DNA of 64,000 nucleotides. Source: Escherichia phage LHE83. The notes under the pieces are model-generated. The model was given only the letters and a program-made list of their open reading frames with translations, did not search any database and had not been told where the DNA came from. The number at the start of each line of letters is the position of its first letter. Positions within the stretch are counted from its first letter, which is position 1. Below are positions 3,346-64,000 of this stretch, in pieces. Location of the stretch: the sequence record OQ561750. The stretch is one strand, 5' to 3'. The position numbers were made by a program, and so were the translations under genes.

Positions 3346-3915
3346 ATGAACATCGAACAAAAATGTCTTTATCAAGACCGAATCAATTCCAAATTCTCAA
3401 AACACGAACAGAATCTTTTAGAAAAATGTCTAGATGCTAAAAAGGACCCTAACTTCCATTACGACCTTGATAAGCTAGTTCGTAAGCATGTTACTTCAGC
3501 GGTTCCGGTAGAGCTTTATCGTGGGATTACCGCTATGGAACTTGAGCAACTTGAAGTTCTTTCTGTTGGGTGCCAGTGGTCTCCTGGCCGGGTTACTTCT
3601 TTTAGTACACAATACTCACAGGCTCGTCAGTTCGCAGGGGCATGGGAATATGGAACCAGAACCATTTTAAGTCTCAGGAATGCACCGTTCATTTTCGACT
3701 ACTATAACCATGCTATCGACCTTGTTCTTGCAGGGAATGTAGATGAGCTTGAAATAGATGAAACCCGTATAGACCTCTACGATATGGTCGAAACTGAATG
3801 TGAGTTCATGGTCTCCAGCCAATCACGATTTGAGATTGTGGAAATCGAAACTATCAAAAGGGACCCGTACGAAATCGAGTACAAAACAATTCATTTAAAA
3901 ATGTTGGATTTTTAG
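3346..3915 (+). CDS. modB: ADP-ribosyltransferase, ModB-like
   Basis: 189 aa; ART motif set R (LYRGI), S-x-S (SFS), E-x-E (ETECE); paralogue of next ORF; modB or modA identity by gene order only. Confidence 0.55.
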   Translation: MNIEQKCLYQDRINSKFSKHEQNLLEKCLDAKKDPNFHYDLDKLVRKHVTSAVPVELYRGITAMELEQLEVLSVGCQWSPGRVTSFSTQYSQARQFAGAWEYGTRTILSLRNAPFIFDYYNHAIDLVLAGNVDELEIDETRIDLYDMVETECEFMVSSQSRFEIVEIETIKRDPYEIEYKTIHLKMLDF

Positions 3916-3969: not shown

Positions 3970-4584
3970 ATGTTATATCCAAGCCATAAATTAGCAGAAT
4001 TTATCAACAACGCCAAATGCGATGATTTCCGTGAGAATACTCAGATAGAAATTGATGAGGTGTATTCTGATTTAGAACAGAGCACGCTCTGGCAGTGTAT
4101 GGAAAATAAACCAGATACTATCCAGGAAACTCTGAACAAAATTATTCGTAAGAACCTGACTTCTGCAGTGCCTGATAAGTTGTATCGCGGAATTTCTAAG
4201 AAGACTATGGCATATCTTGAATCTACGATGTGCGTAGGTGCTGTAATTGAATTCGACCGTGTGATGAGCTTCTCAAAAGATTTCAATGTAGCTCGTAACT
4301 TCGCATCTTATAACTTCTACGGCACATTTAATATCTTTTGTATTAATGATGCACCATTTGTGTACAATTATCAGGAAGAAATCTTTAAAATGTTATGTGC
4401 CGCGCCCCCTGAAGAGTTCCCAGGTGCATTTCCTGAATCTACCCGTGTAGCAAACTTACAATTAATCAATGATGAAGATGAGATGATGTTCCCTGCGGGA
4501 ACTACGCTGAGCGTAGACTCTATTGAGAGAAATCCTAAATGGAATAATTACACCATTTGGAATCTTTCCGTTCTTTCTTACTGA
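3970..4584 (+). CDS. modA: ADP-ribosyltransferase, ModA-like
   Basis: 204 aa; ART motifs R (LYRGI), SFS, E-x-E (EDEMM); paralogue of previous ORF. Confidence 0.55.
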   Translation: MLYPSHKLAEFINNAKCDDFRENTQIEIDEVYSDLEQSTLWQCMENKPDTIQETLNKIIRKNLTSAVPDKLYRGISKKTMAYLESTMCVGAVIEFDRVMSFSKDFNVARNFASYNFYGTFNIFCINDAPFVYNYQEEIFKMLCAAPPEEFPGAFPESTRVANLQLINDEDEMMFPAGTTLSVDSIERNPKWNNYTIWNLSVLSY

Positions 4585-4722: not shown

Positions 4723-5472
4723 ATGCCTACTATTAAAACTAACGATGAATTTGAGTTAAAGGTTTACAAACGTCGCGAACACACTAAAGCCTCTGCCAAA
4801 AAACGTGGTAAGGACTTTAACCTGTCTAGTAAGTACGTTCGTAGACTTCTTGAACAAAAAGTGTGTGCATATTCAGGCGAGCGCTTTGATGAGAATTCAG
4901 ATAAAGATAAGATTTCGTTTGAACGCTTTAACAACGATATAGGTTATATCGAAGGTAATGTAATCCCGGTTAAAGTTAAGTACAACGGGTTGCGAGCTGA
5001 TTTGTCTTTAGATGAATTGAAACGTGCACAGACTCGTTTAGCGTCCCGTATTTCAGGTGGTTCTAAAATGCCTAATAGTTTTAAAGTTACCCCAGATAAT
5101 TATTATAAAATTCGTAAAATAGTTAAAAATATTAAAGATACCCAAAGAGGTCTTAAAAAGCGTGAAAAACGTCTTAAGGACCTTATTAAATCAGGAGCCA
5201 CTGATAATACCCCTTCTGTCATCGCGGTTAAGGCCCGTATCCATGGTTCTAACGCTTCAATAGGTACTATGGAAAAGGGTCTTAAATCTTTAATTGGTGG
5301 GCCTGATTGGCGTGTCAAGTTTAAATTGTCTGAAGCAGAAACGCGTTACGATATGTATGATAAAATTATTCAAGGTCTGGAGCGTTTAGAACACCTTTCT
5401 TTTATTGACAAAATGAAGTTGAAAAAAGGTCTTCCGCTGAATGCTTCAATTTTTTCACTGATTAGAGGTTAA
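4723..5472 (+). CDS. srd: basic Lys-rich protein at the T4 srd position
   Basis: 249 aa; size and position as T4 Srd; sequence identity not verified. Confidence 0.4.
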   Translation: MPTIKTNDEFELKVYKRREHTKASAKKRGKDFNLSSKYVRRLLEQKVCAYSGERFDENSDKDKISFERFNNDIGYIEGNVIPVKVKYNGLRADLSLDELKRAQTRLASRISGGSKMPNSFKVTPDNYYKIRKIVKNIKDTQRGLKKREKRLKDLIKSGATDNTPSVIAVKARIHGSNASIGTMEKGLKSLIGGPDWRVKFKLSEAETRYDMYDKIIQGLERLEHLSFIDKMKLKKGLPLNASIFSLIRG

Positions 5473-5476
5473 CGTG

Positions 5477-5773
5477 ATGTACTATGCATACGTATTAGTT
5501 CACAAGGACAAAGACGGGTACGAAATTCCATTAGAAGAGGCCGGTGAAGTGACTTTGTATTCGACAAAGATTGGAGCCGATACCGCTCTATCCGTTTATG
5601 AAATGTCAACAAAAAGATATCTTCGGCTTGGACGCCTTGAAACGGTGTGCACACCTAGAAAATGGTGGTTTGATAAGTGGGAAACTAAAACAGTATATCC
5701 TACCGAAGAACGAGCCCGAGAACTTAAATTAGTTTTAGACACTTTATATGTTAAGCGAGTAAAATTGGCATGA
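5477..5773 (+). CDS. hypothetical protein (98 aa)
   Basis: ATG with AGAGG SD; track start is a GTG one codon earlier. Confidence 0.45.
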   Translation: MYYAYVLVHKDKDGYEIPLEEAGEVTLYSTKIGADTALSVYEMSTKRYLRLGRLETVCTPRKWWFDKWETKTVYPTEERARELKLVLDTLYVKRVKLA

Positions 5774-7101
5774 TTACATTTGAAGACTTGAACAACGGCC
5801 AGAGGACGGCCTTTAAAGAAATCATTGAAGCTATTAAACGACGTAAGGGTGAATGGATTACATTGAACGGTCCTGCTGGTACAGGTAAAACAACCCTTAC
5901 CAAATTTATTCTTGACCATCTAGTCAAGAATGGTGAACTCGGAGTTATTTTGACTGCGCCTACTCATGCGGCCAAAAAGGTATTGTCGAAACTCGCAGGT
6001 CAAGAAGCATCAACAATTCATAGAATTCTAAAAATTAACCCTACTACGTACGAAGACCAGGACATCTTTGAACAACGCGAAGCTCCTGACTTGAGCAAAT
6101 GTAATGTTCTAGTTGTTGACGAAGGCTCGATGATTGACGGTAAGCTGTTTAAGATTATTGAATCCTCCGTGCCACCATGGTGTACTGTATTAGGGATTGG
6201 CGACAGAGCTCAGCTACAGCCAGTGGAACCTGGAAGTGATGGTAGCCCTCAGTTGTCTCCATTCTTTACACATCCAAAAATCAAACAATTACATTTGACT
6301 GAAGTGATGCGTAGTAATGCTCCTATCATTGAGGTGGCTACTGAAATCCGTAATGGTGGGTGGTTTAGAGATTGTGTATTCGAAGGACATGGTGTCCATG
6401 GTTTTAAATCCCAAACAGCATTAAAAGATTTTATGATGAATTATTTTTCCATTGTAAAAGATGCTGATGCCCTGTTTGAGAATAGGATGTTTGCTTATAC
6501 CAATAAATCGGTTGAAAAGCTGAATAGCATTATTCGTAAAAAGCTTTATGAAACCGATGCACCTTATATCAAGGGCGAAATCCTAGTGATGCAAGAGCCT
6601 TTTATGAAGGAACTTGAATACGATGGTAAGAAATTCTCTGAAACCATTTTTAATAACGGACAAATGGTTCGTATTCTGGATGTGAACCATACCTCGTTGT
6701 TTTTGTCTGCTAAGGATGTAGGCACTCGTCAAATGATTAATTACTGGGACCTGCAAGTAGAATCTGTTGATGAAGACGACGAGTACTATGTAGAGCATTT
6801 AAAGGTTATCGATGAGGCTTCAGTTGAGAAGTTCCATTATTTCTTGGCTAAGGTTGCTACAGAGTACAAAGCCATGCGTGGTAGTGGTAAGAAACCTAAG
6901 TGGGCTGATTTCTGGAAAGCCAAGCGAATGTTCAGTAAGGTTCGAGCTCTTCCTGTGAGCACTGTTCATAAATCCCAAGGACTTACAGTCCAAAACAGTT
7001 TCATCTATACTCCATGCATGCATATGGCTGATGCGAATTTAGCTTCACAGCTGGCTTATGTTAGTATTACTCGTGCTCGTACTGACGCCTACTACGTTTG
7101 A
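5770..7101 (+). CDS. dda: Dda DNA helicase (SF1B)
   Basis: 443 aa; Walker A GPAGTGKT; N-terminus MITFEDLNNGQR as recalled for T4 Dda. Confidence 0.9.
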   Translation: MITFEDLNNGQRTAFKEIIEAIKRRKGEWITLNGPAGTGKTTLTKFILDHLVKNGELGVILTAPTHAAKKVLSKLAGQEASTIHRILKINPTTYEDQDIFEQREAPDLSKCNVLVVDEGSMIDGKLFKIIESSVPPWCTVLGIGDRAQLQPVEPGSDGSPQLSPFFTHPKIKQLHLTEVMRSNAPIIEVATEIRNGGWFRDCVFEGHGVHGFKSQTALKDFMMNYFSIVKDADALFENRMFAYTNKSVEKLNSIIRKKLYETDAPYIKGEILVMQEPFMKELEYDGKKFSETIFNNGQMVRILDVNHTSLFLSAKDVGTRQMINYWDLQVESVDEDDEYYVEHLKVIDEASVEKFHYFLAKVATEYKAMRGSGKKPKWADFWKAKRMFSKVRALPVSTVHKSQGLTVQNSFIYTPCMHMADANLASQLAYVSITRARTDAYYV

Positions 7102-7108
7102 GGAAAAT

Positions 7109-7348
7109 ATGATTAAAGTAACTAAAGACCAATTTTATAAGTTGAAATTCGAAACCGAACATATTATTAAAGTCAACCAAAATAATATCAGCATTAGGCA
7201 AAAGGCCCATACTGTCCTGAACTCTCTTAAAGAGATTGAAAGTGATTTTATTGCAGTACAAAATCTGATGGACGACAATATCTCTTCGGTTTATATTGAA
7301 GACTACACCGTTGGCCAAATCCGAGACCTTATGAGGTACGTTAAATGA
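7109..7348 (+). CDS. hypothetical protein (79 aa)
   Basis: ATG with GAGGAAAA SD just after dda stop. Confidence 0.45.
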   Translation: MIKVTKDQFYKLKFETEHIIKVNQNNISIRQKAHTVLNSLKEIESDFIAVQNLMDDNISSVYIEDYTVGQIRDLMRYVK

Positions 7349-8019
7349 AAGATATAATTATTGACTTTGAAACCTTTGCCACTACTCAAAATGCAGCGGT
7401 TATCGACCTAGCCGTAATTGCTTACGACCCTAATCCAGAGGTTGTAGAAACGTTTGAAGAGCTTACTAAACGAGGCCTTCGTATTAAATTTGACCTCGCT
7501 TCTCAACGTGATAAACGACTGTTTTCTAAAAGCACGTTGCAGTGGTGGAAAGAGCAAGGGCCTGAAGCGCGTAAAAACCTGGCTCCATCTGAAATTGATG
7601 TGTCCACTTCTATTGGTCTCGGTAATTTCCTGGAATACTGTCGTAAAAACGAAGTAGACCAATGGAAATCCCAGATGTGGTGTCGTGGAATGTCCTTTGA
7701 CTTTCCTATCTTAGTCGACCTTATTCGTGATGCTTATCGTTCTGAAGGGGTTCCTGAGAATGAAATCGATACCAGTAAATTAGAACCGGTTAAATTCTGG
7801 AACCAACGTGACATCCGTACAGCTATTGAAGCATATTCACTAACTCGTGGATTGAGCATGTGTCCTCTGCCTAACGGAACATTGAACGGCTTTGTTGCTC
7901 ATGACTCCATCCATGACTGTGCTAAGGATATCTTGATGCTGAAATATGCCCAACGTTATGCCTTAGGCCTGGAAGATGTCCCTGAGAATCCGGACCCATT
8001 AAGTATAAAAAATCGATAA
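7345..8019 (+). CDS. dexA: exonuclease A (DexA, DEDDh-type)
   Basis: 224 aa; IIDFET N-terminus and HDSIHDCAKD C-terminal motif as recalled for T4 DexA. Confidence 0.85.
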   Translation: MKDIIIDFETFATTQNAAVIDLAVIAYDPNPEVVETFEELTKRGLRIKFDLASQRDKRLFSKSTLQWWKEQGPEARKNLAPSEIDVSTSIGLGNFLEYCRKNEVDQWKSQMWCRGMSFDFPILVDLIRDAYRSEGVPENEIDTSKLEPVKFWNQRDIRTAIEAYSLTRGLSMCPLPNGTLNGFVAHDSIHDCAKDILMLKYAQRYALGLEDVPENPDPLSIKNR

Positions 8020-9207: not shown

Positions 9208-9759
9208 ATGATTACTATCGGTGAAATTGTTCGTGTATCCAAAGAATCTCGCTCAAAAGCCGCAGGTCGTTTTGTTGAAGTTGCAGGTATTCGTACTAAT
9301 TTAGTAGGCGGAATTAAAGAAGTTAAAGTGCGTATTATTCCTAAAAATGGCCATACCGAAACCGAATTTGCCTATGTGCATCCTAAATTCTTGGAATCGA
9401 CTGAATTTACTGGACACATCGCTCCTGTAGTTGAAGAAGTTGAATCCCATGATGGGTATGTATGTGAAAGCAATGATATCCGTGGCGTAGTAGCTCAAGA
9501 CGTTGAAACTATTGACCAATCTCATGTTGGTGTTGATTTCAAATGGAAATTAGGTAAAGGTGTCTTTTTCGTTTCACCTAAACCGTTTGAATACAATTGC
9601 AAGTATGGCCCGACTTATGAAACCACTAGTATGTCCGGTTACATCACAGACCAATGGGTTGAAGAAGGTGTTAAGCTGTATAACATCGTGTTCCTTGGCA
9701 CCTTTAAAGTAGTTCCTGAAAGTTTTATTGTTGAGTACGCTGATATTCATTTTGCATAA
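9208..9759 (+). CDS. hypothetical protein (183 aa), paralogue of 8586-9134
   Basis: C-terminal similarity to previous ORF; own promoter. Confidence 0.5.
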   Translation: MITIGEIVRVSKESRSKAAGRFVEVAGIRTNLVGGIKEVKVRIIPKNGHTETEFAYVHPKFLESTEFTGHIAPVVEEVESHDGYVCESNDIRGVVAQDVETIDQSHVGVDFKWKLGKGVFFVSPKPFEYNCKYGPTYETTSMSGYITDQWVEEGVKLYNIVFLGTFKVVPESFIVEYADIHFA

Positions 9760-55831: not shown

Positions 55832-56044
55832 ATGTTTAAGAAATTGATTCAGAAATTATTAGGTACGGAAATGGTCGAAGTGACTTATCGTGTAACTGAT
55901 TTATCTCCTGTGCATCCACAAGATGAACCATATACTAAAACAATTAAAATGCTGAAATCTGACGGCGGATTATCTATTAAAGACCGTCTACCTGGTTATG
56001 GTCATTGGGCTGATGTAGAGATTATCAGTGTCAAAGATATTTAA
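55832..56044 (+). CDS. hypothetical protein (70 aa), paralogue of next ORF
   Basis: Shares LVEVTYRV.DLSP and IISVKD motifs with 56054-56266. Confidence 0.45.
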   Translation: MFKKLIQKLLGTEMVEVTYRVTDLSPVHPQDEPYTKTIKMLKSDGGLSIKDRLPGYGHWADVEIISVKDI

Positions 56045-56053
56045 GGAGTCTTC

Positions 56054-56266
56054 ATGATTAAGAAATTATTTAAAAAGCTGTTTGGCTTGGAACTGGTTGA
56101 AGTGACTTATCGTGTTATTGATTTATCACCGCCATATGCTTGCGATGAAGATGCTATTAAAACTGTTGTTATGCGAAAAACATATCGCGGGCAGTCAATT
56201 AAAGAAAGATTGCCAGACCATGGCATGTGGTATGCAACCAAGATTATCAGTGTCAAAGATGTCTGA
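56054..56266 (+). CDS. hypothetical protein (70 aa), paralogue of previous ORF
   Basis: Tandem duplicate. Confidence 0.45.
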   Translation: MIKKLFKKLFGLELVEVTYRVIDLSPPYACDEDAIKTVVMRKTYRGQSIKERLPDHGMWYATKIISVKDV

Positions 56267-57353: not shown

Positions 57354-57632
57354 ATGTTTGTAGTTCATACAATTTCAGACTATGGTCCTACCACTACAAT
57401 GGATTATGGTCATGTAAACCAGTTTATTCGTCATGTGAATCATGATTACTCATTTGATGTAAATCCGGCTAAAGACCATCCTGTTTGGCGCGAATGCGTC
57501 GAACAGGGATTCATTTATGTCCACTTTATGTCCAAGTTCAAATCTGATGGGCGAATGAGATTTGTGTTCTCTTATCATAAGCGATTAGACTTGCTTTTGG
57601 CTGATGTGGCTTATAATAGAATCCATGACTAA
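57354..57632 (+). CDS. hypothetical protein (92 aa)
   Basis: ATG with GAGGT SD after upstream stop. Confidence 0.4.
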   Translation: MFVVHTISDYGPTTTMDYGHVNQFIRHVNHDYSFDVNPAKDHPVWRECVEQGFIYVHFMSKFKSDGRMRFVFSYHKRLDLLLADVAYNRIHD

Positions 57633-57642
57633 TGAGGTGATT

Positions 57643-59166
57643 ATGATTTTAGATATTTTAAACGAAATTGCTGCTATCGATTCCACTAAAGCTAAAGAAG
57701 CCATTATTGCTCGTGAAAAGGACAATGAGCTTCTGAAACGTGTTTATCGTATGGCGTATACCCGTCGTTTGAACTACGGTATTAAAAAGTGGCCAGAACC
57801 TGGATTTACATCTCAATCCTTTGGTATGATTACTCTTGAAGACCTTCTTGATTTCGCTGAATTCACATTAGCCACACGTAAGATTACGGGTAATGCGGCT
57901 ATTGAAGAACTGGCTCAAATCATTGCTGATGCTAAGGCCCCGGATGCCGAGGTATTACGTCGTGTAATGATGCGCGACCTTGAATGTGGTGCATCGATTT
58001 CTATTGCTAACAAGGTTTGGAAAGGTTTAATCCCTGAACAACCGCAGATGTTGGCGAGTTCTTATGATGAAGCTTTGATTAAGAAAAATATTAAATGGCC
58101 AGCGTTTGCTCAATTAAAAGCTGATGGTGCTCGTTGTTTTGCCGAAGTTCGTAACGATGGTGTGACATTCCTTACTCGTGGTGGTAATGAATACCAAGGG
58201 CTTCATCTTTTAGCTGCTGAATTAATGGCGATGACCGAAGAAGCTCGTCAACGTCATCCTAATGGCGTTATGATTGATGGCGAATTAGTTTACCATACTC
58301 CTAAAGTTGAACCTAAAGCATCTAATGATTTGTTTAGTATGTTTGACGAGGAACTTCCTGAATTAAGTAAAGCCAAAGAATTCCAAACTGTCGCCGATCG
58401 TTCTACGTCAAATGGATTGGCTAATAAGGCTCTTCAAGGAACTATCACCCCATCTGAAGCCGCTGGTATGGTATTACAGGCATGGGATTATGTCCCACTG
58501 GATGTCGTGTATTCTGAAGGCAAAATTAAAGGTGATAAGTATGATGTACGCTTTACAGCCTTAGAACTTATGGTGGCTCATAATGTCGTATTGCATGGCA
58601 CAACGCGTGTTGAAGCTATCGAAAACCAGTGGGTTAATAATCTTGAAGAAGCTAAAGTCGTTTATAAGAAATATGTCGACCAAGGTCTGGAAGGTATTAT
58701 CCTTAAGAACATGGACTCCTACTGGGAAAACCGCCGTTCTAAGAATCTTATCAAGTTCAAAGAAGTAATCGATATTGCTTTAGAAGTGGTGGGTTATTAT
58801 GAACACTCGAAGGACCCTAACAAGCTAGGTGGCGTCGAGTTGGTATCACGTTGTCGTCGAATTACAAGCGACTGTGGTTCAGGCTTTAAAGATACCACCC
58901 ATAAGAAAGATAAATCAGGTAAAAAGGTATTGATTCCATTGGAAGACCGTCCTGATTTAGACCGTGAACTTCTTATGAAACAAGCTCGTGAAGGTAAGTT
59001 GATTGGACGTATTGCTGACTGTGAATGTAATGGTTGGGTTCATTCTAAAGGTCGTACTGATACTGTAGGTATTTTCCTTCCAATCATTAAAGGTTGGCGT
59101 TTCGATAAAACAGAAGCTGATACATTTGAAGATGTATTCGGTGATTGGTCTCAAACTGGTCTATAA
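57643..59166 (+). CDS. 30: ATP-dependent DNA ligase gp30
   Basis: 507 aa from ATG 57643 (GAGGTGA SD); adenylation motif KADGARC; colinear with T4 ligase as recalled. Confidence 0.9.
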   Translation: MILDILNEIAAIDSTKAKEAIIAREKDNELLKRVYRMAYTRRLNYGIKKWPEPGFTSQSFGMITLEDLLDFAEFTLATRKITGNAAIEELAQIIADAKAPDAEVLRRVMMRDLECGASISIANKVWKGLIPEQPQMLASSYDEALIKKNIKWPAFAQLKADGARCFAEVRNDGVTFLTRGGNEYQGLHLLAAELMAMTEEARQRHPNGVMIDGELVYHTPKVEPKASNDLFSMFDEELPELSKAKEFQTVADRSTSNGLANKALQGTITPSEAAGMVLQAWDYVPLDVVYSEGKIKGDKYDVRFTALELMVAHNVVLHGTTRVEAIENQWVNNLEEAKVVYKKYVDQGLEGIILKNMDSYWENRRSKNLIKFKEVIDIALEVVGYYEHSKDPNKLGGVELVSRCRRITSDCGSGFKDTTHKKDKSGKKVLIPLEDRPDLDRELLMKQAREGKLIGRIADCECNGWVHSKGRTDTVGIFLPIIKGWRFDKTEADTFEDVFGDWSQTGL

Positions 59167-59167
59167 T

Positions 59168-59350
59168 ATGAAAGCTTATTTAGAAACCGTGGTTATTGGA
59201 TATAAAGAAGGTGGGGATGTCTCCACTGCAGTGTCCCAAATTGTCCTTGAATTTGAAAATGAAATCGCGTTCGCTGATTTTAAAGATAATTTCGACCGCT
59301 ATGAAAAGGGTCCTAAATTTGAAGTGTACCGTACGCTGTTAGTACTTTAA
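59168..59350 (+). CDS. hypothetical protein (60 aa)
   Basis: ATG one nt after ligase stop; no clear SD. Confidence 0.35.
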   Translation: MKAYLETVVIGYKEGGDVSTAVSQIVLEFENEIAFADFKDNFDRYEKGPKFEVYRTLLVL

Positions 59351-59353
59351 TAA

Positions 59354-59370
59354 AGGCCTTCGGGCCTTTT
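59354..59370 (+). terminator. hairpin terminator (AGGCC-UUCG-GGCCU plus U4)
   Basis: GC stem, UUCG loop, T-run; followed by CATAAATA. Confidence 0.55.
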
Positions 59371-59404
59371 CTGGCATAAATAAGGTTATTAAAGAGGAAT
59401 TATT

Positions 59405-61489
59405 ATGACCGAACAATTAAATGAAGTGTTTGAGTCCGAAGGCACACTGCCTACAGTAAACTTGAACCCAAAACTTAAAGTACCCCAGATTTGGAAGATT
59501 GGTGACGCAGAATCCCAATTAGTGGCGCGTATGGTATCCTACGCTTCTGAAGGTGATGCTATTAAACAGGTTAAGATGGGTGATAAATATGCCCACGTTA
59601 TCCTTATGAGCCTTTCAGCTAAAGGTTCGCCTGCCGAACTTAAAGGTGGCCTAGGCCCTACTCCCGTAGATGCGATTAATACTATTTTTGATATGGTTTA
59701 TGACCAAGTTAAAAAGCTTCGTATGGATGCCGTGATGTTCCGTTTCCCTACTAAGAAAATGAAAGGTCAAGGCCCTATCGTTCAACGGATTATCCAACGT
59801 TTGGTAGCACAGAAAACAGGTGGACGTTTTAAAGTAGTTCCGGCTATGTACCAATTTACCGGTAAACATACTTACATCCTGGTAGTTCGTAAACAAGCTG
59901 ATATAGAAGATATCAAAGGTATGCCTGGAATTAATGCTGAATTGTATACTAAGGTAGATTCTGATGTCGGTGAAGTTTATATTTCTAAAAAAGAAGGCGT
60001 GCAGGTTACTAAAGAAACTGCTATCGCCGGTAGTATTGCTAAGGTTGAAGAACGTCGCACTGATAAAATGGTTATAACCAAGACTAAGATTTCTCGACGT
60101 GCTATTGCAGCAAGTCAATCGTTAGAATCTTATCGTAATGAAAGTGAGCTGTTTAAGAAATATGAAGCTACTGCAGTAGATTTTAATAAACCGGCAACAG
60201 TTCCATTAATCCCTGAGGCCCAGGAAATGGTTACTAATAACAATTCTCCTGCGGCTAAAAATAAGGTTGCTAATATAGTGGCTGAAGGCACTGCTGAAGA
60301 ATTGCATTACGATTACAAATTGTTCCCACTTCACGGTATTGGCGAAATCCAAGAGAAAATTAAAGAGAAAATCCTTACGGCCATCAAAAACGAACCTTTG
60401 ACATCTGTTAAAGCCCTAGAAAAATATGCCTCTACTATTAATACCATTTTCGAAGAATACAAAGGCGAGTGGCTGGCTATTCATAACAGAACCCGTAAAG
60501 GCCAACCTGATGACCTTTGGAACGAATTGACAGAGGCCAAGTGGAAAGCGGCCAAGACCAAGTTCATTAAAAAACGCGTGTATAGTTTTGCTGGTGTAGG
60601 TGGCGGTATTATGGTCGATATTACTATTGCTCGTGAGGGTTCTAAATATACTCCATCACAAAAGCGTGGTATCAGAGAATATTGTGGTTCAGGATATACA
60701 GACATAAATAATCTTCTTTTAGGACGTTATAATCCTCAGAACTATGAGGTTATGAGCGAAAAAGATATCGAATCTGCAGTTAATAATTTGGATTCTGCTT
60801 TTGAAAATGGCGACCGTATACCAGAGGGCATCACAGTTTATCGTGCCCAGAGTATGACTGCTCCTATATACGAAGCACTAGTTAAAAATAAAGTGTTTTA
60901 TTTTAGAAATTTTGTATCCACTTCATTGACCCCTATAATTTTCGGACGTTTTGGTGTTACGCACGCTGGTATCGGTCTTTTAGAACCTGAAGTTCGCAAT
61001 GAATTGACAGTCGATAAAAATGAAGAAGGAATAACTATTAATCCTAATGAAATAAGAGCATATAAAGAAAATCCTGATTATGTTAAAGTTCAAATAGGAT
61101 GGGCTATTGATGGGGCCCATAAAGTTAATGTCGTATATCCAGGAAATCTCGGAATAGCAACTGAAGCCGAAGTTATTCTACCGCGTGGATTAATGGTCAA
61201 AGTTAATAAAATAACAGATGCTTCTAATAATGATGGAACAACATCTAGTAATACAAAACTCATTCAAGCTGAAGTTATGACAACAGATGAGCTTCAAGAA
61301 TCTGTGGTATATGATGGTGATGTACTAATGGAAACCGGCGAGTTGGTCGTATATCAAGATGACTTCGATACTTCCGAAAGCCCCTTATCTTTTGATTCAT
61401 TTGTTAAATCTACACGGTTTGATGTACTGCCTCTTTTGGCTTCATGCATAGACCTCTATGACATCCCAGAAAAATTCATCCAAGGGTAA
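59405..61489 (+). CDS. alt: Alt-type ADP-ribosyltransferase, copy 1
   Basis: 694 aa; N-terminal 250 aa colinear with T4 Alt as recalled (VTK..AIA.SIA...R.D..VI.K.KISRRAIA.SQSLES); C-terminal ART elements VYRAQ, FVSTSL, EAEVILPRG. Confidence 0.8.
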   Translation: MTEQLNEVFESEGTLPTVNLNPKLKVPQIWKIGDAESQLVARMVSYASEGDAIKQVKMGDKYAHVILMSLSAKGSPAELKGGLGPTPVDAINTIFDMVYDQVKKLRMDAVMFRFPTKKMKGQGPIVQRIIQRLVAQKTGGRFKVVPAMYQFTGKHTYILVVRKQADIEDIKGMPGINAELYTKVDSDVGEVYISKKEGVQVTKETAIAGSIAKVEERRTDKMVITKTKISRRAIAASQSLESYRNESELFKKYEATAVDFNKPATVPLIPEAQEMVTNNNSPAAKNKVANIVAEGTAEELHYDYKLFPLHGIGEIQEKIKEKILTAIKNEPLTSVKALEKYASTINTIFEEYKGEWLAIHNRTRKGQPDDLWNELTEAKWKAAKTKFIKKRVYSFAGVGGGIMVDITIAREGSKYTPSQKRGIREYCGSGYTDINNLLLGRYNPQNYEVMSEKDIESAVNNLDSAFENGDRIPEGITVYRAQSMTAPIYEALVKNKVFYFRNFVSTSLTPIIFGRFGVTHAGIGLLEPEVRNELTVDKNEEGITINPNEIRAYKENPDYVKVQIGWAIDGAHKVNVVYPGNLGIATEAEVILPRGLMVKVNKITDASNNDGTTSSNTKLIQAEVMTTDELQESVVYDGDVLMETGELVVYQDDFDTSESPLSFDSFVKSTRFDVLPLLASCIDLYDIPEKFIQG

Positions 61490-61492
61490 ATA

Positions 61493-63538
61493 ATGGAAAA
61501 TTTAAATGAGGTTTTTGATAGTGATTCCGCTAAAAACTATCCAGTAACAAATCTTAAACCGGGTTCCGGTATTCCACAGATTTTCTCTATCCAAGCACCA
61601 GGTAATGATAATCTGGTTGCTCGTATGGTATCTTATGCGTCTCAAGGAGACGCTATTAAAATGGTTAAGCCGGGCGACAAATATGTTCATGTTATTTTGA
61701 TGAGTTTGTCTGCTAAGGGTAGCCCAGCCGAGTTGAAAGGTGGGTTAGGTTCTGACCCACTTGGTACGCTGAATACCATTTTTGATACTGTATACGAACA
61801 AGTAAACAAACTTAAAATGGATGCAGTTCTTTTCCGGTTCCCTACCAAGAAAATGAAAGGTAAGGGTCCTACTGTTCAACGTGTATTGGCACGTTTGGCG
61901 ATGGCTCGTACTGGCGGCAAGTTTAAAGTTGTCGATGATATGTATCAATTTACAGGCAAACATACATACGTTTTACTGGTCCGTAAACAAGCTAATATTG
62001 AGGACATAAAAGGTATGCCTGAAATTGATGCAGACCTTTACACTAAGGTTGAGTCTAAAGTTGGTGAGGTTTATGTATCCAAGAAAACAGGCCAATCGGT
62101 AACCAAAATAGAAGCACTATCTGCTAGTATAGCGGCAGTCGAAGAAAAACGTATGGATAAGGCTGTTATTACTACTACCAAGATTTCTAGGCGTGCTGTA
62201 GCCGCAGCCCAGTATTCTCCTCGAGATGAAGTTCCGGAAGGTTGGAATGAGATTGATGCAGAGGCATCAAAATTTAGTGCCCCGGCAACAGCGGAACTTA
62301 TCGATGATTATGAAGAACTAGAAATTTTTATTCAACCTTCTGAAACGAATACTATGGAGCGTATGCGCGCGGCAGATATGGCTATGCGAGCAAACAGTGT
62401 TTGGAAAGAAGAAATTCGAGTCGAAGACTCTGACCCAATTTTTAACCGTATGCATCGTGAACTTAAACGTGCTCCTGTCGGCAGTATGAAGCAGATGCAG
62501 ATTTTTGCCGAATCATGTGCAGAGGTTCTTAACCTTCGCAAAGCTGCATTTATTGAAAGAAAAATGAATGAGGCTCCTCCTAATATGGATGCGGCAGAAT
62601 ATGCAGCAGAGCTTTGGGAACAAGAGTATGCTCAACGTATAAGTGCTGCTGTTACCGACTTTGCTAATGAAGCGTCAGAAAGTGTTATGCATTTTACAGC
62701 CAGTTATAGCGATAATCGATTTGAGTATGAGCAGCGTGAGGCTATTTCTTCTTATTGTGGCCAATATTATACCGATGTTAATAATTATTTGTTGGGTAAT
62801 TATTATGAAGAGGATGCAGAATTTATTGATAGTTATCGTGTAATTGAAGTAATTAATGATATGGATGCAGCATTTGAAATTGGCCATAAATTGCCACCTG
62901 ATATTACACTTTGGCGTGGTCAATATTTAAATGTTAACACTTTTGATAAAATCAAACACTCAAAATTGTTTTATTTCAGGAACTATGTATCAACGTCCCT
63001 TAAGCCGATTATCTTTGGCGGCTGGGTATCAAACGTCGCAATGGCCGCAGTTCATCAGGACTATCGCGCTGGGACATCTTTCCAAGGCGATAATGAAATT
63101 GTTCTTCCAAGTATGCTGACGAGTTCCGAAAATACAATGATGAACATCGGTTGGAAAATTTCCGGTGCAGACTCTATTAACGTAATTGTGCCAGGTAAAT
63201 TGTCAGGTTCTCCAACAGAACAAGAGGTTATTCTTCCACGTGGAACTACTGTTAAGATTACTAAAATTACAGATGCCTCATATAAAGGAAACTACAACAC
63301 CAAATTACTGGAAGCTGATATCCAGACCACAGACCAACTAGCAGAAAATGCAGTTATCTACGATGGTGATGCATTGATGGAAACCGGCGAATTGGTTGTT
63401 TACCAAGGCGTAGAAACAGAGACCGACAACCCTGTGTCTTTTGATTCATTCGTCAAATCGACCAAGGTGGATATAATGCCTATTTTAGCTTCATGTATTA
63501 ATTTTGACGAAACCCCAGAAAAATTCACCCAAGGGTAA
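61493..63538 (+). CDS. Alt-type ADP-ribosyltransferase, copy 2
   Basis: 681 aa; conserved Alt N-terminus; ART elements LWRGQ, YVSTSL, EQEVILPRG; central region diverged from copy 1. Confidence 0.8.
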   Translation: MENLNEVFDSDSAKNYPVTNLKPGSGIPQIFSIQAPGNDNLVARMVSYASQGDAIKMVKPGDKYVHVILMSLSAKGSPAELKGGLGSDPLGTLNTIFDTVYEQVNKLKMDAVLFRFPTKKMKGKGPTVQRVLARLAMARTGGKFKVVDDMYQFTGKHTYVLLVRKQANIEDIKGMPEIDADLYTKVESKVGEVYVSKKTGQSVTKIEALSASIAAVEEKRMDKAVITTTKISRRAVAAAQYSPRDEVPEGWNEIDAEASKFSAPATAELIDDYEELEIFIQPSETNTMERMRAADMAMRANSVWKEEIRVEDSDPIFNRMHRELKRAPVGSMKQMQIFAESCAEVLNLRKAAFIERKMNEAPPNMDAAEYAAELWEQEYAQRISAAVTDFANEASESVMHFTASYSDNRFEYEQREAISSYCGQYYTDVNNYLLGNYYEEDAEFIDSYRVIEVINDMDAAFEIGHKLPPDITLWRGQYLNVNTFDKIKHSKLFYFRNYVSTSLKPIIFGGWVSNVAMAAVHQDYRAGTSFQGDNEIVLPSMLTSSENTMMNIGWKISGADSINVIVPGKLSGSPTEQEVILPRGTTVKITKITDASYKGNYNTKLLEADIQTTDQLAENAVIYDGDALMETGELVVYQGVETETDNPVSFDSFVKSTKVDIMPILASCINFDETPEKFTQG

Positions 63539-63541
63539 ATA

Positions 63542-64000
63542 ATGGAAAATTTAAACGAAGTTTTTGATAAAAGCGATAAAAAAAATTACCCAGTAACAAA
63601 TCTTAAACCTGGCTCAGGCGTACCGCAGATTTTTGCGGTACATGCTCCTGGTAATGACAATTTAGTAGCACGTATGGTATCTTATGCGTCTGAAGGCGAC
63701 GCTATTAAGATGGTTAAAAATGGTGATAAGTACGTCCATGTTATCTTAATGAGTTTATCTGCTAAAGGCGCTCCGGCAGAACTCAAGGGTGGTTTGGGTA
63801 CCGATCCACTCGGTACACTGAACACCATTTTCGATACCATATATGAACAAATAAACAAACTTAAAATGGACGCGGTTTTGTTCCGTTTCCCTACTAAGAA
63901 AATGAAAGGTAAAGGTCCCACCGTTCAGCGCGTATTAGCTCGCTTGGCTATGGCTCGTACCGGTGGTAAGTTTAAAGTTGTTGACGACATGTTCCAATTC
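63542..64000 (+). CDS. Alt-type ADP-ribosyltransferase, copy 3 (3' end outside window)
   Basis: 153 codons open to window end; N-terminus most similar to copy 2; same junction sequence TAAATAATGGAAAATTTAAA. Confidence 0.75.
   Translation, partial: MENLNEVFDKSDKKNYPVTNLKPGSGVPQIFAVHAPGNDNLVARMVSYASEGDAIKMVKNGDKYVHVILMSLSAKGAPAELKGGLGTDPLGTLNTIFDTIYEQINKLKMDAVLFRFPTKKMKGKGPTVQRVLARLAMARTGGKFKVVDDMFQF

Follow-up and report, generated by a model that had tools for sequence, protein, structure and literature searches.

The alt locus of the T4-like Escherichia phage LHE83: a tandem array of three Alt-family ADP-ribosyltransferase genes with mosaic domain relationships

The alt gene array and its products

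The window analysed here, a 64,000-nt stretch of the genome of Escherichia phage LHE83 (sequence record OQ561750), ends in three consecutive large open reading frames (ORFs) of the Alt family of phage ADP-ribosyltransferases (ARTs), which we call alt1, alt2 and alt3. All three lie head-to-tail on the + strand, at 59405-61489 (694 aa), 61493-63538 (681 aa) and 63542->64000, with intergenic gaps of 3 nt each; the third is cut by the window end, its frame being stop-free for the 153 codons from 63542. Megablast identified the window as that of a Dhakavirus, a T4-like phage, with QL01, C6, fDHCT2, AnYang and MX01 covering 100% of the query. The alt1 and alt2 genes are 99.5-99.9% identical to those of QL01 at the nt level, and the start of alt3 is 97.6% identical to C6 and 95.6% to QL01, in both of which the gene is full-length (707 aa) and of type C (the JS10 altb/RB32 alt.-2 type). 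The array of QL01 and C6 thus reads 694/681/707 aa, and in QL01 all three genes are annotated as Alt-like. The features of the array are given below in window coordinates; 'cassette' denotes the central and ART regions together, gp21 is the prohead protease of T4, and pI is the isoelectric point.

59405-61489, + strand: alt1, 694 aa, cassette type A (T4/RB32 alt type); matches PHROG 802 and PF03496
59405-59425, + strand: predicted N-propeptide of alt1, MTEQLNE, with a gp21-type site, LNE-7, that aligns with ITE-6 of T4 Alt
59426-60139, + strand: N-domain of alt1, residues 8-245, basic (pI 9.75), lineage-specific
60140-61300, + strand: proposed effector cassette of alt1, helical central region 246-415 and ART 416-632, ending at the predicted gp21 site LQE-632
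61301-61486, + strand: predicted C-propeptide of alt1, 62 aa, pI 4.05, aligning with the 63-residue C-propeptide of T4 Alt
61487-61492, + strand: junction 1, the TAA stop followed by ATA, with the alt2 ATG next; the final codons of alt1 include an AAGGG ribosome-binding site
61493-63538, + strand: alt2, 681 aa, a mosaic of three parts with cassette type B (as in alt of Gaprivervirus VR7)
61493-61510, + strand: predicted N-propeptide of alt2, MENLNE, site LNE-6
61511-62227, + strand: N-domain of alt2, residues 7-245, alpha/beta, basic (pI 9.68)
62228-63346, + strand: proposed effector cassette of alt2, all-helical central region 246-405 and ART 406-618, ending at LAE-618
63347-63535, + strand: predicted C-propeptide of alt2, 63 aa, pI 4.05, disordered or modelled with low confidence
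63539-63541, + strand: junction 2, ATA separating the stop of alt2 from the ATG of alt3
63542-64000, + strand: first 153 codons of alt3 (predicted N-propeptide MENLNE and the greater part of the N-domain); the window ends within the gene

The products match the family PHROG 802 ('Alt-like RNA polymerase ADP-ribosyltransferase') with E-values of 3e-262 for alt1 (residues 1-693 of 694), 2e-254 for alt2 (residues 1-680 of 681) and 1e-74 for the truncated alt3 (residues 1-153), and PF03496 (ADPrib_exo_Tox), which alone passed the Pfam threshold on the full-length proteins, matches alt1 at 4e-36 and alt2 at 7e-21. The catalytic residues of this C3/VIP2-type ART fold are present as R480, S505-T506-S507 and E587/E589 in alt1 and as R475, S500/S502 and E576/E578 in alt2, and the alt3 orthologues of QL01 and C6 retain R482, S507/S509 and E610/E612. 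In T4 Alt, the E577A mutation abolishes activity (PMC11404850); by its position, E577 falls in the same E-x-E motif, and it equals E576 as counted in NC_000866, there being a one-residue numbering offset. The coordinates, the full-length PHROG 802 matches, PF03496, the ART fold and synteny with T4 alt therefore confirm alt1-alt3 as Alt-family genes in tandem, as the original prediction, made from the letters alone, had supposed. The N-terminal signature on which that prediction relied, LVARMVSYAS.GDAIK.VK.GDKY.HVILMSLSAKG.PAELKGGLG, was found in all three copies, as were its ART-core motifs in the two complete ones, namely VYRAQ, FVSTSL and EAEVILPRG in copy 1 and LWRGQ, YVSTSL and EQEVILPRG in copy 2.

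An AlphaFold2 model of alt2, built with 69 homologues (predicted local distance difference test, pLDDT, 81.9; predicted template-modelling score, pTM, 0.73), divides the protein into an alpha/beta N-domain (residues ~18-230), an all-helical central region (250-405), the ART domain (410-612) and a low-confidence tail (619-681) that coincides with the predicted C-propeptide. Outside the ART domain, sequence searches gave little: NCBIfam had no match for any of the three copies, the N-domains and central regions, searched on their own against Pfam at E up to 10, returned noise only, and a sequence search of the PDB found no solved structure of Alt, the only matches being weak ART ones to iota-like toxin and CdtA. 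An assignment to the MuF-fused Alt/VIP2 ARTs was rejected, as the N-domains gave no Phage_Mu_F match at E up to 10. We note that precomputed annotation lists PF26846 besides PF03496 on every Alt homologue.

The window also contains a ModA/ModB-like pair of ORFs at 3346-3915 (189 aa) and 3970-4584 (204 aa), and because both match PHROG 832 ('RNA polymerase ADP-ribosylase'; E 1.5e-37 and 3.6e-44), the earlier count of five ART-fold genes, three alt genes and this pair, also holds. ModA and ModB belong to the same R-S-E Alt/VIP2 ART clade as Alt (PMC5512222), but the T4 proteins differ in consisting of the ART domain alone (~190-205 aa), without N-domain, central region or propeptides, and in being made after infection and not packaged.

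Mosaic domain relationships and the age of the copies

The domains of Alt were compared separately: for each, trees and identity tables were made from the full-length Alt proteins, 23 in number, of 13 phages. The N-domain (residues 1-240) tree groups the proteins by phage lineage and not by cassette: the three LHE83 copies lie together, with those of Mosigvirus ATK47 and Marfavirus MY02, as do T4 alt, RB32 alt and RB32 alt.-2, the two Thanatos copies, and the two 44RR copies. The central and ART trees, on the other hand, group by cassette type across genera, and the closest cassettes to those of the array are found elsewhere, as follows (aa identities; alt3 was represented by QL01_3 / JS10 altb).

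alt1: RB32 alt, central region 63%, ART 94%
alt2: Gaprivervirus VR7 alt, central region 83%, ART 77%
alt3: RB32 alt.-2, central region 47%, ART 58%

The N-domains of VR7 and alt2 are only 40% identical, and the alt1 ART core is 85-92% identical to that of RB32 alt at the nt level, against a background of 60-66% for ligase, gp54 and gp48 (QL01 vs RB32). The complementary case is provided by RB32 and T4, in which alt is ~100% identical at residues 1-240 and 97% identical in the last 37 residues but only 25-68% between; the cassette of RB32, like T4 a Tequatrovirus, is of the Dhakavirus alt1 type. The alt2 protein is itself a mosaic, being alt3-like at residues 1-240, VR7 alt-like at 241-640 and closest to alt1 at 641-681. 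The left boundary of the cassette lies just after the conserved KISRRA motif at approximately residue 240, and the right boundary close to the C-terminal cleavage site.

In a larger set of 137 proteins, the identities of the central and ART regions were coupled (Spearman 0.88), and no pair had a central identity of >=60% with an ART identity of <60%, or the reverse. The N-domain is much less tied to the cassette: 73 pairs had N-domains >=85% identical yet ART domains <60% identical, and nine pairs had N-domains <60% identical yet ART domains >=85% identical. At a 40% identity threshold, there are ~30 cassette types among the 137 proteins, and at least four of these occur on both Dhakavirus-type and Tequatrovirus-/Gaprivervirus-type N-domains, an example across lineages being Bp7 alt', which carries the T4-alt cassette type. 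Within the LHE83 array, the cassettes are mutually 21-40% identical, and the strong difference between the central regions of the copies that had been remarked upon from the sequence is borne out (10-20% identity per 40-column window). Its reading as drift from one ancestor, however, fails, the copies carrying distinct central+ART cassettes that are each closer to another genus. This domain-level mosaicism is the sole aspect of the locus that we could not find described, and we offer it as a modest, testable hypothesis on how Alt reaches the head and on the reason for which phages retain more than one copy.

The N-domains are more alike, with aa identities of 68% for alt1 vs alt2 and 90% for alt2 vs alt3, and when the first 153 codons are compared, copy 3 shares 90% of its residues with copy 2 and 65% with copy 1, in agreement with the view that its N-terminus is nearer to that of copy 2. 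At four-fold degenerate sites in the N-domain, however, identity is only 35-45% for alt1/alt2 and 44-54% for alt2/alt3, compared with the 33% expected by chance from base composition. Because these sites are at or near saturation, the paralogues must be old and the N-terminal similarity reflects purifying selection rather than fresh duplication; the same saturation rules out recent gene conversion as its cause. Nucleotide identity between the copies does not exceed 78-80% in the stretch where they are most alike and is ~40-50% elsewhere. The LHE83 and C6 orthologues are 98-99% identical at the aa level and their nt differences fall mostly at third positions, which argues that all copies are under purifying selection.

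Judging by the gene sequences of relatives, recombination between array copies does occur, in the form of copy loss and of gene conversion. JS10 altb (JS10 locus 5001-7124) resembles alt2 over the first ~240 nt (60-nt windows being 82-98% identical) and, from ~nt 480 onwards, alt3 (92-93% in most windows), and since this is the product expected of a crossover between the alt2 and alt3 N-domains that removes the alt2 body, the two-copy array of JS10 appears to have arisen by deletion from three copies. In QL01, the first 60 nt of alt3 (QL01 locus 9243-9302) contain a tract that resembles alt2; LHE83 and C6 lack this tract, the 5' end of the LHE83 alt3 following that of C6.

Predicted processing and expression, and proposed delivery

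In T4, mass spectrometry has shown that gp21 cleaves Alt at ITE-6 and LTE-619, removing 6 N-terminal and 63 C-terminal residues, to give a mature protein of 68.2 kDa, the role of both propeptides being left open (PMC5694885); the N-terminal cleavage is also given in the annotation of X15811, and the mature mass that we computed for the T4 protein, 68.2 kDa, matches the published value. The sites that align with ITE-6 and LTE-619 are LNE-7 and LQE-632 in alt1, LNE-6 and LAE-618 in alt2, and LNE-6 in alt3 (with LSE-653 in its orthologues). Among the full-length copies examined, all that have the YDGD motif keep both gp21 motifs, and the Glu of the C-terminal site (alt2 E618) is invariant in an alignment of 69 sequences. 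The predicted C-propeptides are acidic (pI ~4.0-4.2), and the N-domains that would be retained are basic (pI 9.5-9.8). T4 Alt is a non-essential component of the prohead core, present at ~40 copies per head and ejected with the DNA (PMC9958956, PMC9026906), and Alt-like proteins have been detected in virions of T4-like phages besides T4; according to reviews, the mechanism that targets Alt and other core proteins to the T4 prohead is unknown (PMC9958956). In assays, T4 Alt ADP-ribosylates the alpha subunit of RNA polymerase and other host proteins (PMC5512222, PMC9503650).

The upstream side of the array contains the following features.

57604-59166: ligase (gene 30)
59126-59350, + strand: alt.1-like small ORF adjoining the array (PHROG 1976, E 2e-30); a shorter 60-aa form is annotated in relatives
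59352-59369, + strand: hairpin AAAGGCC-TTCG-GGCCTTT between alt.1 and alt1, a candidate terminator or RNA-stability element
59375-59382, + strand: CATAAATA, a late-promoter-like box with one mismatch to the T4 type, ~22 nt before the alt1 start codon; putative function

The alt.1 gene is annotated at the equivalent position in JS10, RB32 and T4. Ligase gene 30 and alt.1 come before the array in QL01 and C6, and after it come alt.-3 and then, on the opposite strand, the baseplate genes 54, 48 and 29, an order identical to that of T4; the LHE83 array thus occupies the locus between gene 30/alt.1 and alt.-3/gene 54, the downstream side being read in QL01 and C6. A GGCCTTCGGGCC-type hairpin is found at the equivalent position in 10 phages of six genera, and a terminator upstream of alt has been reported as conserved in T4-like genomes (PMC1524935). 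The position of the late promoter is occupied by the consensus TATAAATA in T4, RB32, VR7 and KPV15 and by CATAAATA in QL01, C6, JS10, ATK47 and MY02. A simple terminator scan did not flag the hairpin at 59352-59369, sigma-70 promoter and terminator scans of 58900-64000 found sites no more numerous than in shuffled sequence, and exact TATAAATA is absent from the scanned alt region. No signals resembling the hairpin or late box precede alt2 or alt3, and an AAGGG/AAGGA ribosome-binding site lies inside the last codons of each upstream gene. The simplest interpretation is therefore one late operon with translational coupling: the three genes would probably share a transcript that starts at a late-type promoter upstream of alt1 and, given the 3-nt gaps and the position of the ribosome-binding sites, their translation is probably coupled.

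Taken together, these data lead us to regard the region as probably the Dhakavirus alt locus with three capsid-delivered ARTs, in which a lineage-specific adaptor is joined to exchangeable effector cassettes. Each protein would consist of an N-propeptide of 6-7 residues ending in L-N-E, a basic alpha/beta N-domain of ~235 aa that is retained on the mature protein, an all-helical central region, an ART of the C3/VIP2/Vis-type with the R-S-E motif, and an acidic C-propeptide of ~62 aa following L-x-E. By analogy with T4 Alt, each copy would enter the core of the prohead, lose residues from both ends to gp21, be ejected with the DNA and ADP-ribosylate arginine residues in host proteins as soon as infection begins. 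The N-domain, and in part the C-propeptide, may serve as the adaptor for packaging or ejection, while the central and ART regions may form an exchangeable cassette that sets target specificity; on this proposal, since the three cassettes differ, three different effectors would be loaded per virion, and three capsid-delivered ARTs with different host targets seem to us the most likely outcome. More tentatively, and with rather more doubt than confidence, we suggest that Alt in general may be a modular, capsid-based platform for effector delivery, in which an adaptor locked to the lineage (the N-domain and C-propeptide, framed by the gp21 sites) is combined with traded central+ART cassettes. If this were true, arrays would load several effectors per virion, perhaps against different host proteins or defence systems.

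Several points weigh against this interpretation. Literature searches for the Dhakavirus Alt copies found no study of activity, target, proteomics or paralogues; the integrity of alt3 in the LHE83 window is deduced from its relatives; the LHE83 promoter box, at a position conserved in 10 phages, is CATAAATA and not the TATAAATA consensus; and the clustering of N-domains by lineage could instead have come from independent duplications followed by import of cassettes.

The original prediction read the array as the outcome of repeated duplication by unequal recombination; the corresponding rival account is a recent duplication of a single alt gene by unequal crossing-over at identical junctions, after which the central regions would have diverged fast. 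The junctions at 61478-61520 and 63527-63569 do differ at only 3/43 bases, within a wider 147-nt repeat (61374-61520 / 63423-63569) that is 80% identical, the alt2 and alt3 N-domains are 90% identical at the aa level, and recombination between copies is seen in relatives; unequal recombination therefore stands as a mechanism acting on the array, through copy loss and gene conversion. As an account of recent origin, it is largely refuted by the saturation of four-fold sites (35-54% identity vs 33% by chance), and we consider it very unlikely, because every cassette is nearer to one from another genus than to its own array and JS10 altb resembles the deletion product of a three-copy array, not its precursor. 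The near-identity of the junctions is in any case not peculiar to this array, the same layout (..KF.QG stop, 3 nt, ATG-GAA..) being shared by T4 (alt/alt.-1), RB32 and JS10, and is explained by coding constraint on both sides together with the ribosome-binding site in the last codons of the upstream gene. That assembly produced the array artificially, by false expansion of one alt gene or by wrong resolution of a collapsed repeat, draws on nothing beyond the general risk that tandem repeats pose in assembly, and hardly deserves belief: the copies are too different, at <=78-80% nt identity in the best stretch, and the same three-gene order is found in the independently sequenced C6, fDHCT2, QL01, AnYang, MX01 and others.

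The extra copies might instead be redundant or decaying, on the way to pseudogenes such as T4 alt.-1/alt.-2 and contributing dosage at most. T4 does keep the remnant of a second copy, JS10, IME08 and Bp7 have two copies and many genera have one, and T4 Alt is non-essential; but alt1 and alt2 are unbroken ORFs in which every catalytic and processing motif is present, the orthologues of C6, QL01 and JS10 share 97-100% of their amino acids while differing at third positions, indicative of purifying selection, and the same cassette types persist in other genera. Since the cassettes are just 21-40% identical to each other, the extra copies are not dosage copies, and we judge decay or redundancy to be unlikely. 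The other alternative concerns the N-domain, which might be a second functional module, such as an enzyme of the GNAT type or a domain that binds the host or DNA, evolving merely along with the genome, cassette exchange then being unlinked to delivery; we think this improbable, though it deserves some weight.

The N-domain profile kept 531 positions and also gathered ART-only proteins, so only matches within positions 1-240 were used; it matches just 107 clusters in 1.84 billion representatives, and no convincing known relative of the N-domain was found. A Foldseek search of the BFVD with residues 1-410 of the alt2 model gave non-Alt matches at E 1e-5 to 1e-3 and 10-18% identity, to large uncharacterised proteins of Dickeya phage RC-2014, Erwinia phage phiEa2809, Shigella phage MK-13, Vibrio phages VP-1 and Kuja, and Agrobacterium phage Atu_ph07. 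Weaker matches were to proteins named as a deaminase (uncultured phage) and a Zeta toxin (Atu_ph07), at E 2e-3 to 9e-3, and one named ParB/Srx was matched at E 5e-4. The proposed adaptor fold may, on these model-based comparisons, be shared with non-ART cargo of other myoviruses; the matches, like the protein P0187 described below, are leads towards a wider role as cargo adaptor, not evidence.

Three metagenomic proteins, P0187, P0174 and P0182, were flagged as Alt N-domain homologues of unusual architecture. P0187 (541 aa) has the N-domain, a middle part and an Alt-like C-tail, with no ART match, and P0174 (1142 aa) has the N-domain, a stretch that by eye is degenerate and ART-like (with no Pfam match) and a C-terminal extension of ~650 aa.

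Known arrays and related systems

Multi-copy alt arrays are common in T4-type genomes and already annotated, a question that the original prediction had not settled. With the N-domain as a tblastn query, 1,201 phage records and 1,821 places were matched, and the query with the cassette matched 1,203 records and 1,783 places; the alt2 cassette occurs at >=95% identity in eleven records. Two places per genome are usual in many Tequatrovirus phages, RB32 alt.-2 being full-length (685 aa). T4 does carry a single full-length alt, as the original prediction stated, but it also retains two remnants, alt.-1 and alt.-2, whose annotation describes an old duplication of the beginning of the gene. Two copies are found in JS10 (alta and altb) and in Thanatos-1, three in 44RR2.8t, and there is one alt in the representatives of Mosigvirus, Gaprivervirus, Jiaodavirus, Marfavirus and Lazarusvirus. 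Annotated three-copy arrays, with the gene order and junctions of LHE83, are those of QL01, C6, MX01, WG01 and AnYang; other annotated multi-copy arrays are alta/altb of JS98, JS10 and IME08, alt/alt' of Bp7, alt/alt.-2 of RB32 and ORF188/187/alt of 44RR2.8t, and the two-copy genomes, unlike LHE83, are without the type-B cassette. Because the three-gene form is annotated in the closest relatives and alt paralogues and duplications were noted in 2006 (PMC1524935), the array is already known and is in itself nothing new. What the domain-wise comparison adds is that it makes the question of how Alt is targeted to the prohead testable. RB32 alt is a natural chimera in which the N-domain and C-tail of T4 surround a Dhakavirus-type cassette, and so suggests swaps for locating packaging determinants; alt2, with an alt3 N-domain, a VR7-type cassette and an alt1-type tail, is another, and three cassettes resident in one phage would allow a direct comparison of ART target spectra.

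T4 Alt (gpAlt, NP_049811) shares with the LHE83 copies its position, its length (682 vs 681-707 aa), the five parts, the R-S-E motif, both gp21 motifs, the upstream hairpin and the late-type box. It is a capsid-packaged, injected NAD+:arginine mono-ADP-ribosyltransferase, and T4 differs in having one full copy and the alt.-1/alt.-2 remnant. Compared with the LHE83 copies, T4 Alt is 42-46% identical in the N-domain, 32, 22 and 10% identical in the central region and 64, 41 and 39% identical in the ART domain (alt1, alt2 and alt3, respectively). IPI, IPII and IPIII, which are T4 internal proteins, likewise combine a conserved targeting and processing element with a highly variable injected cargo, gp21 cutting after (L/I)-x-E (PMC9026906); these proteins, however, lose a capsid-targeting sequence of 10-19 aa, while Alt loses only 6-7 aa, keeps a 235-aa domain and has a second, C-terminal propeptide. 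The ART toxins C3, VIP2, iota, Vis and Certhrax are secreted bacterial proteins with other delivery domains, at 15-22% identity.

A short ART-only gene lies beside full-length alt in 44RR2.8t (4980-5939, 319 aa) and in JK32 (7101-7934, 277 aa). Both genes are without the N-domain and the gp21 motifs and align only to the ART part of Alt, and their products are presumably not packaged. In the LHE83 window, upstream of ligase in the gene 30.x region, two adjacent ORFs of 70 aa at 55832-56044 and 56054-56266 are paralogues of each other, being 57% identical over their full length without gaps (BLASTP E 3e-26).

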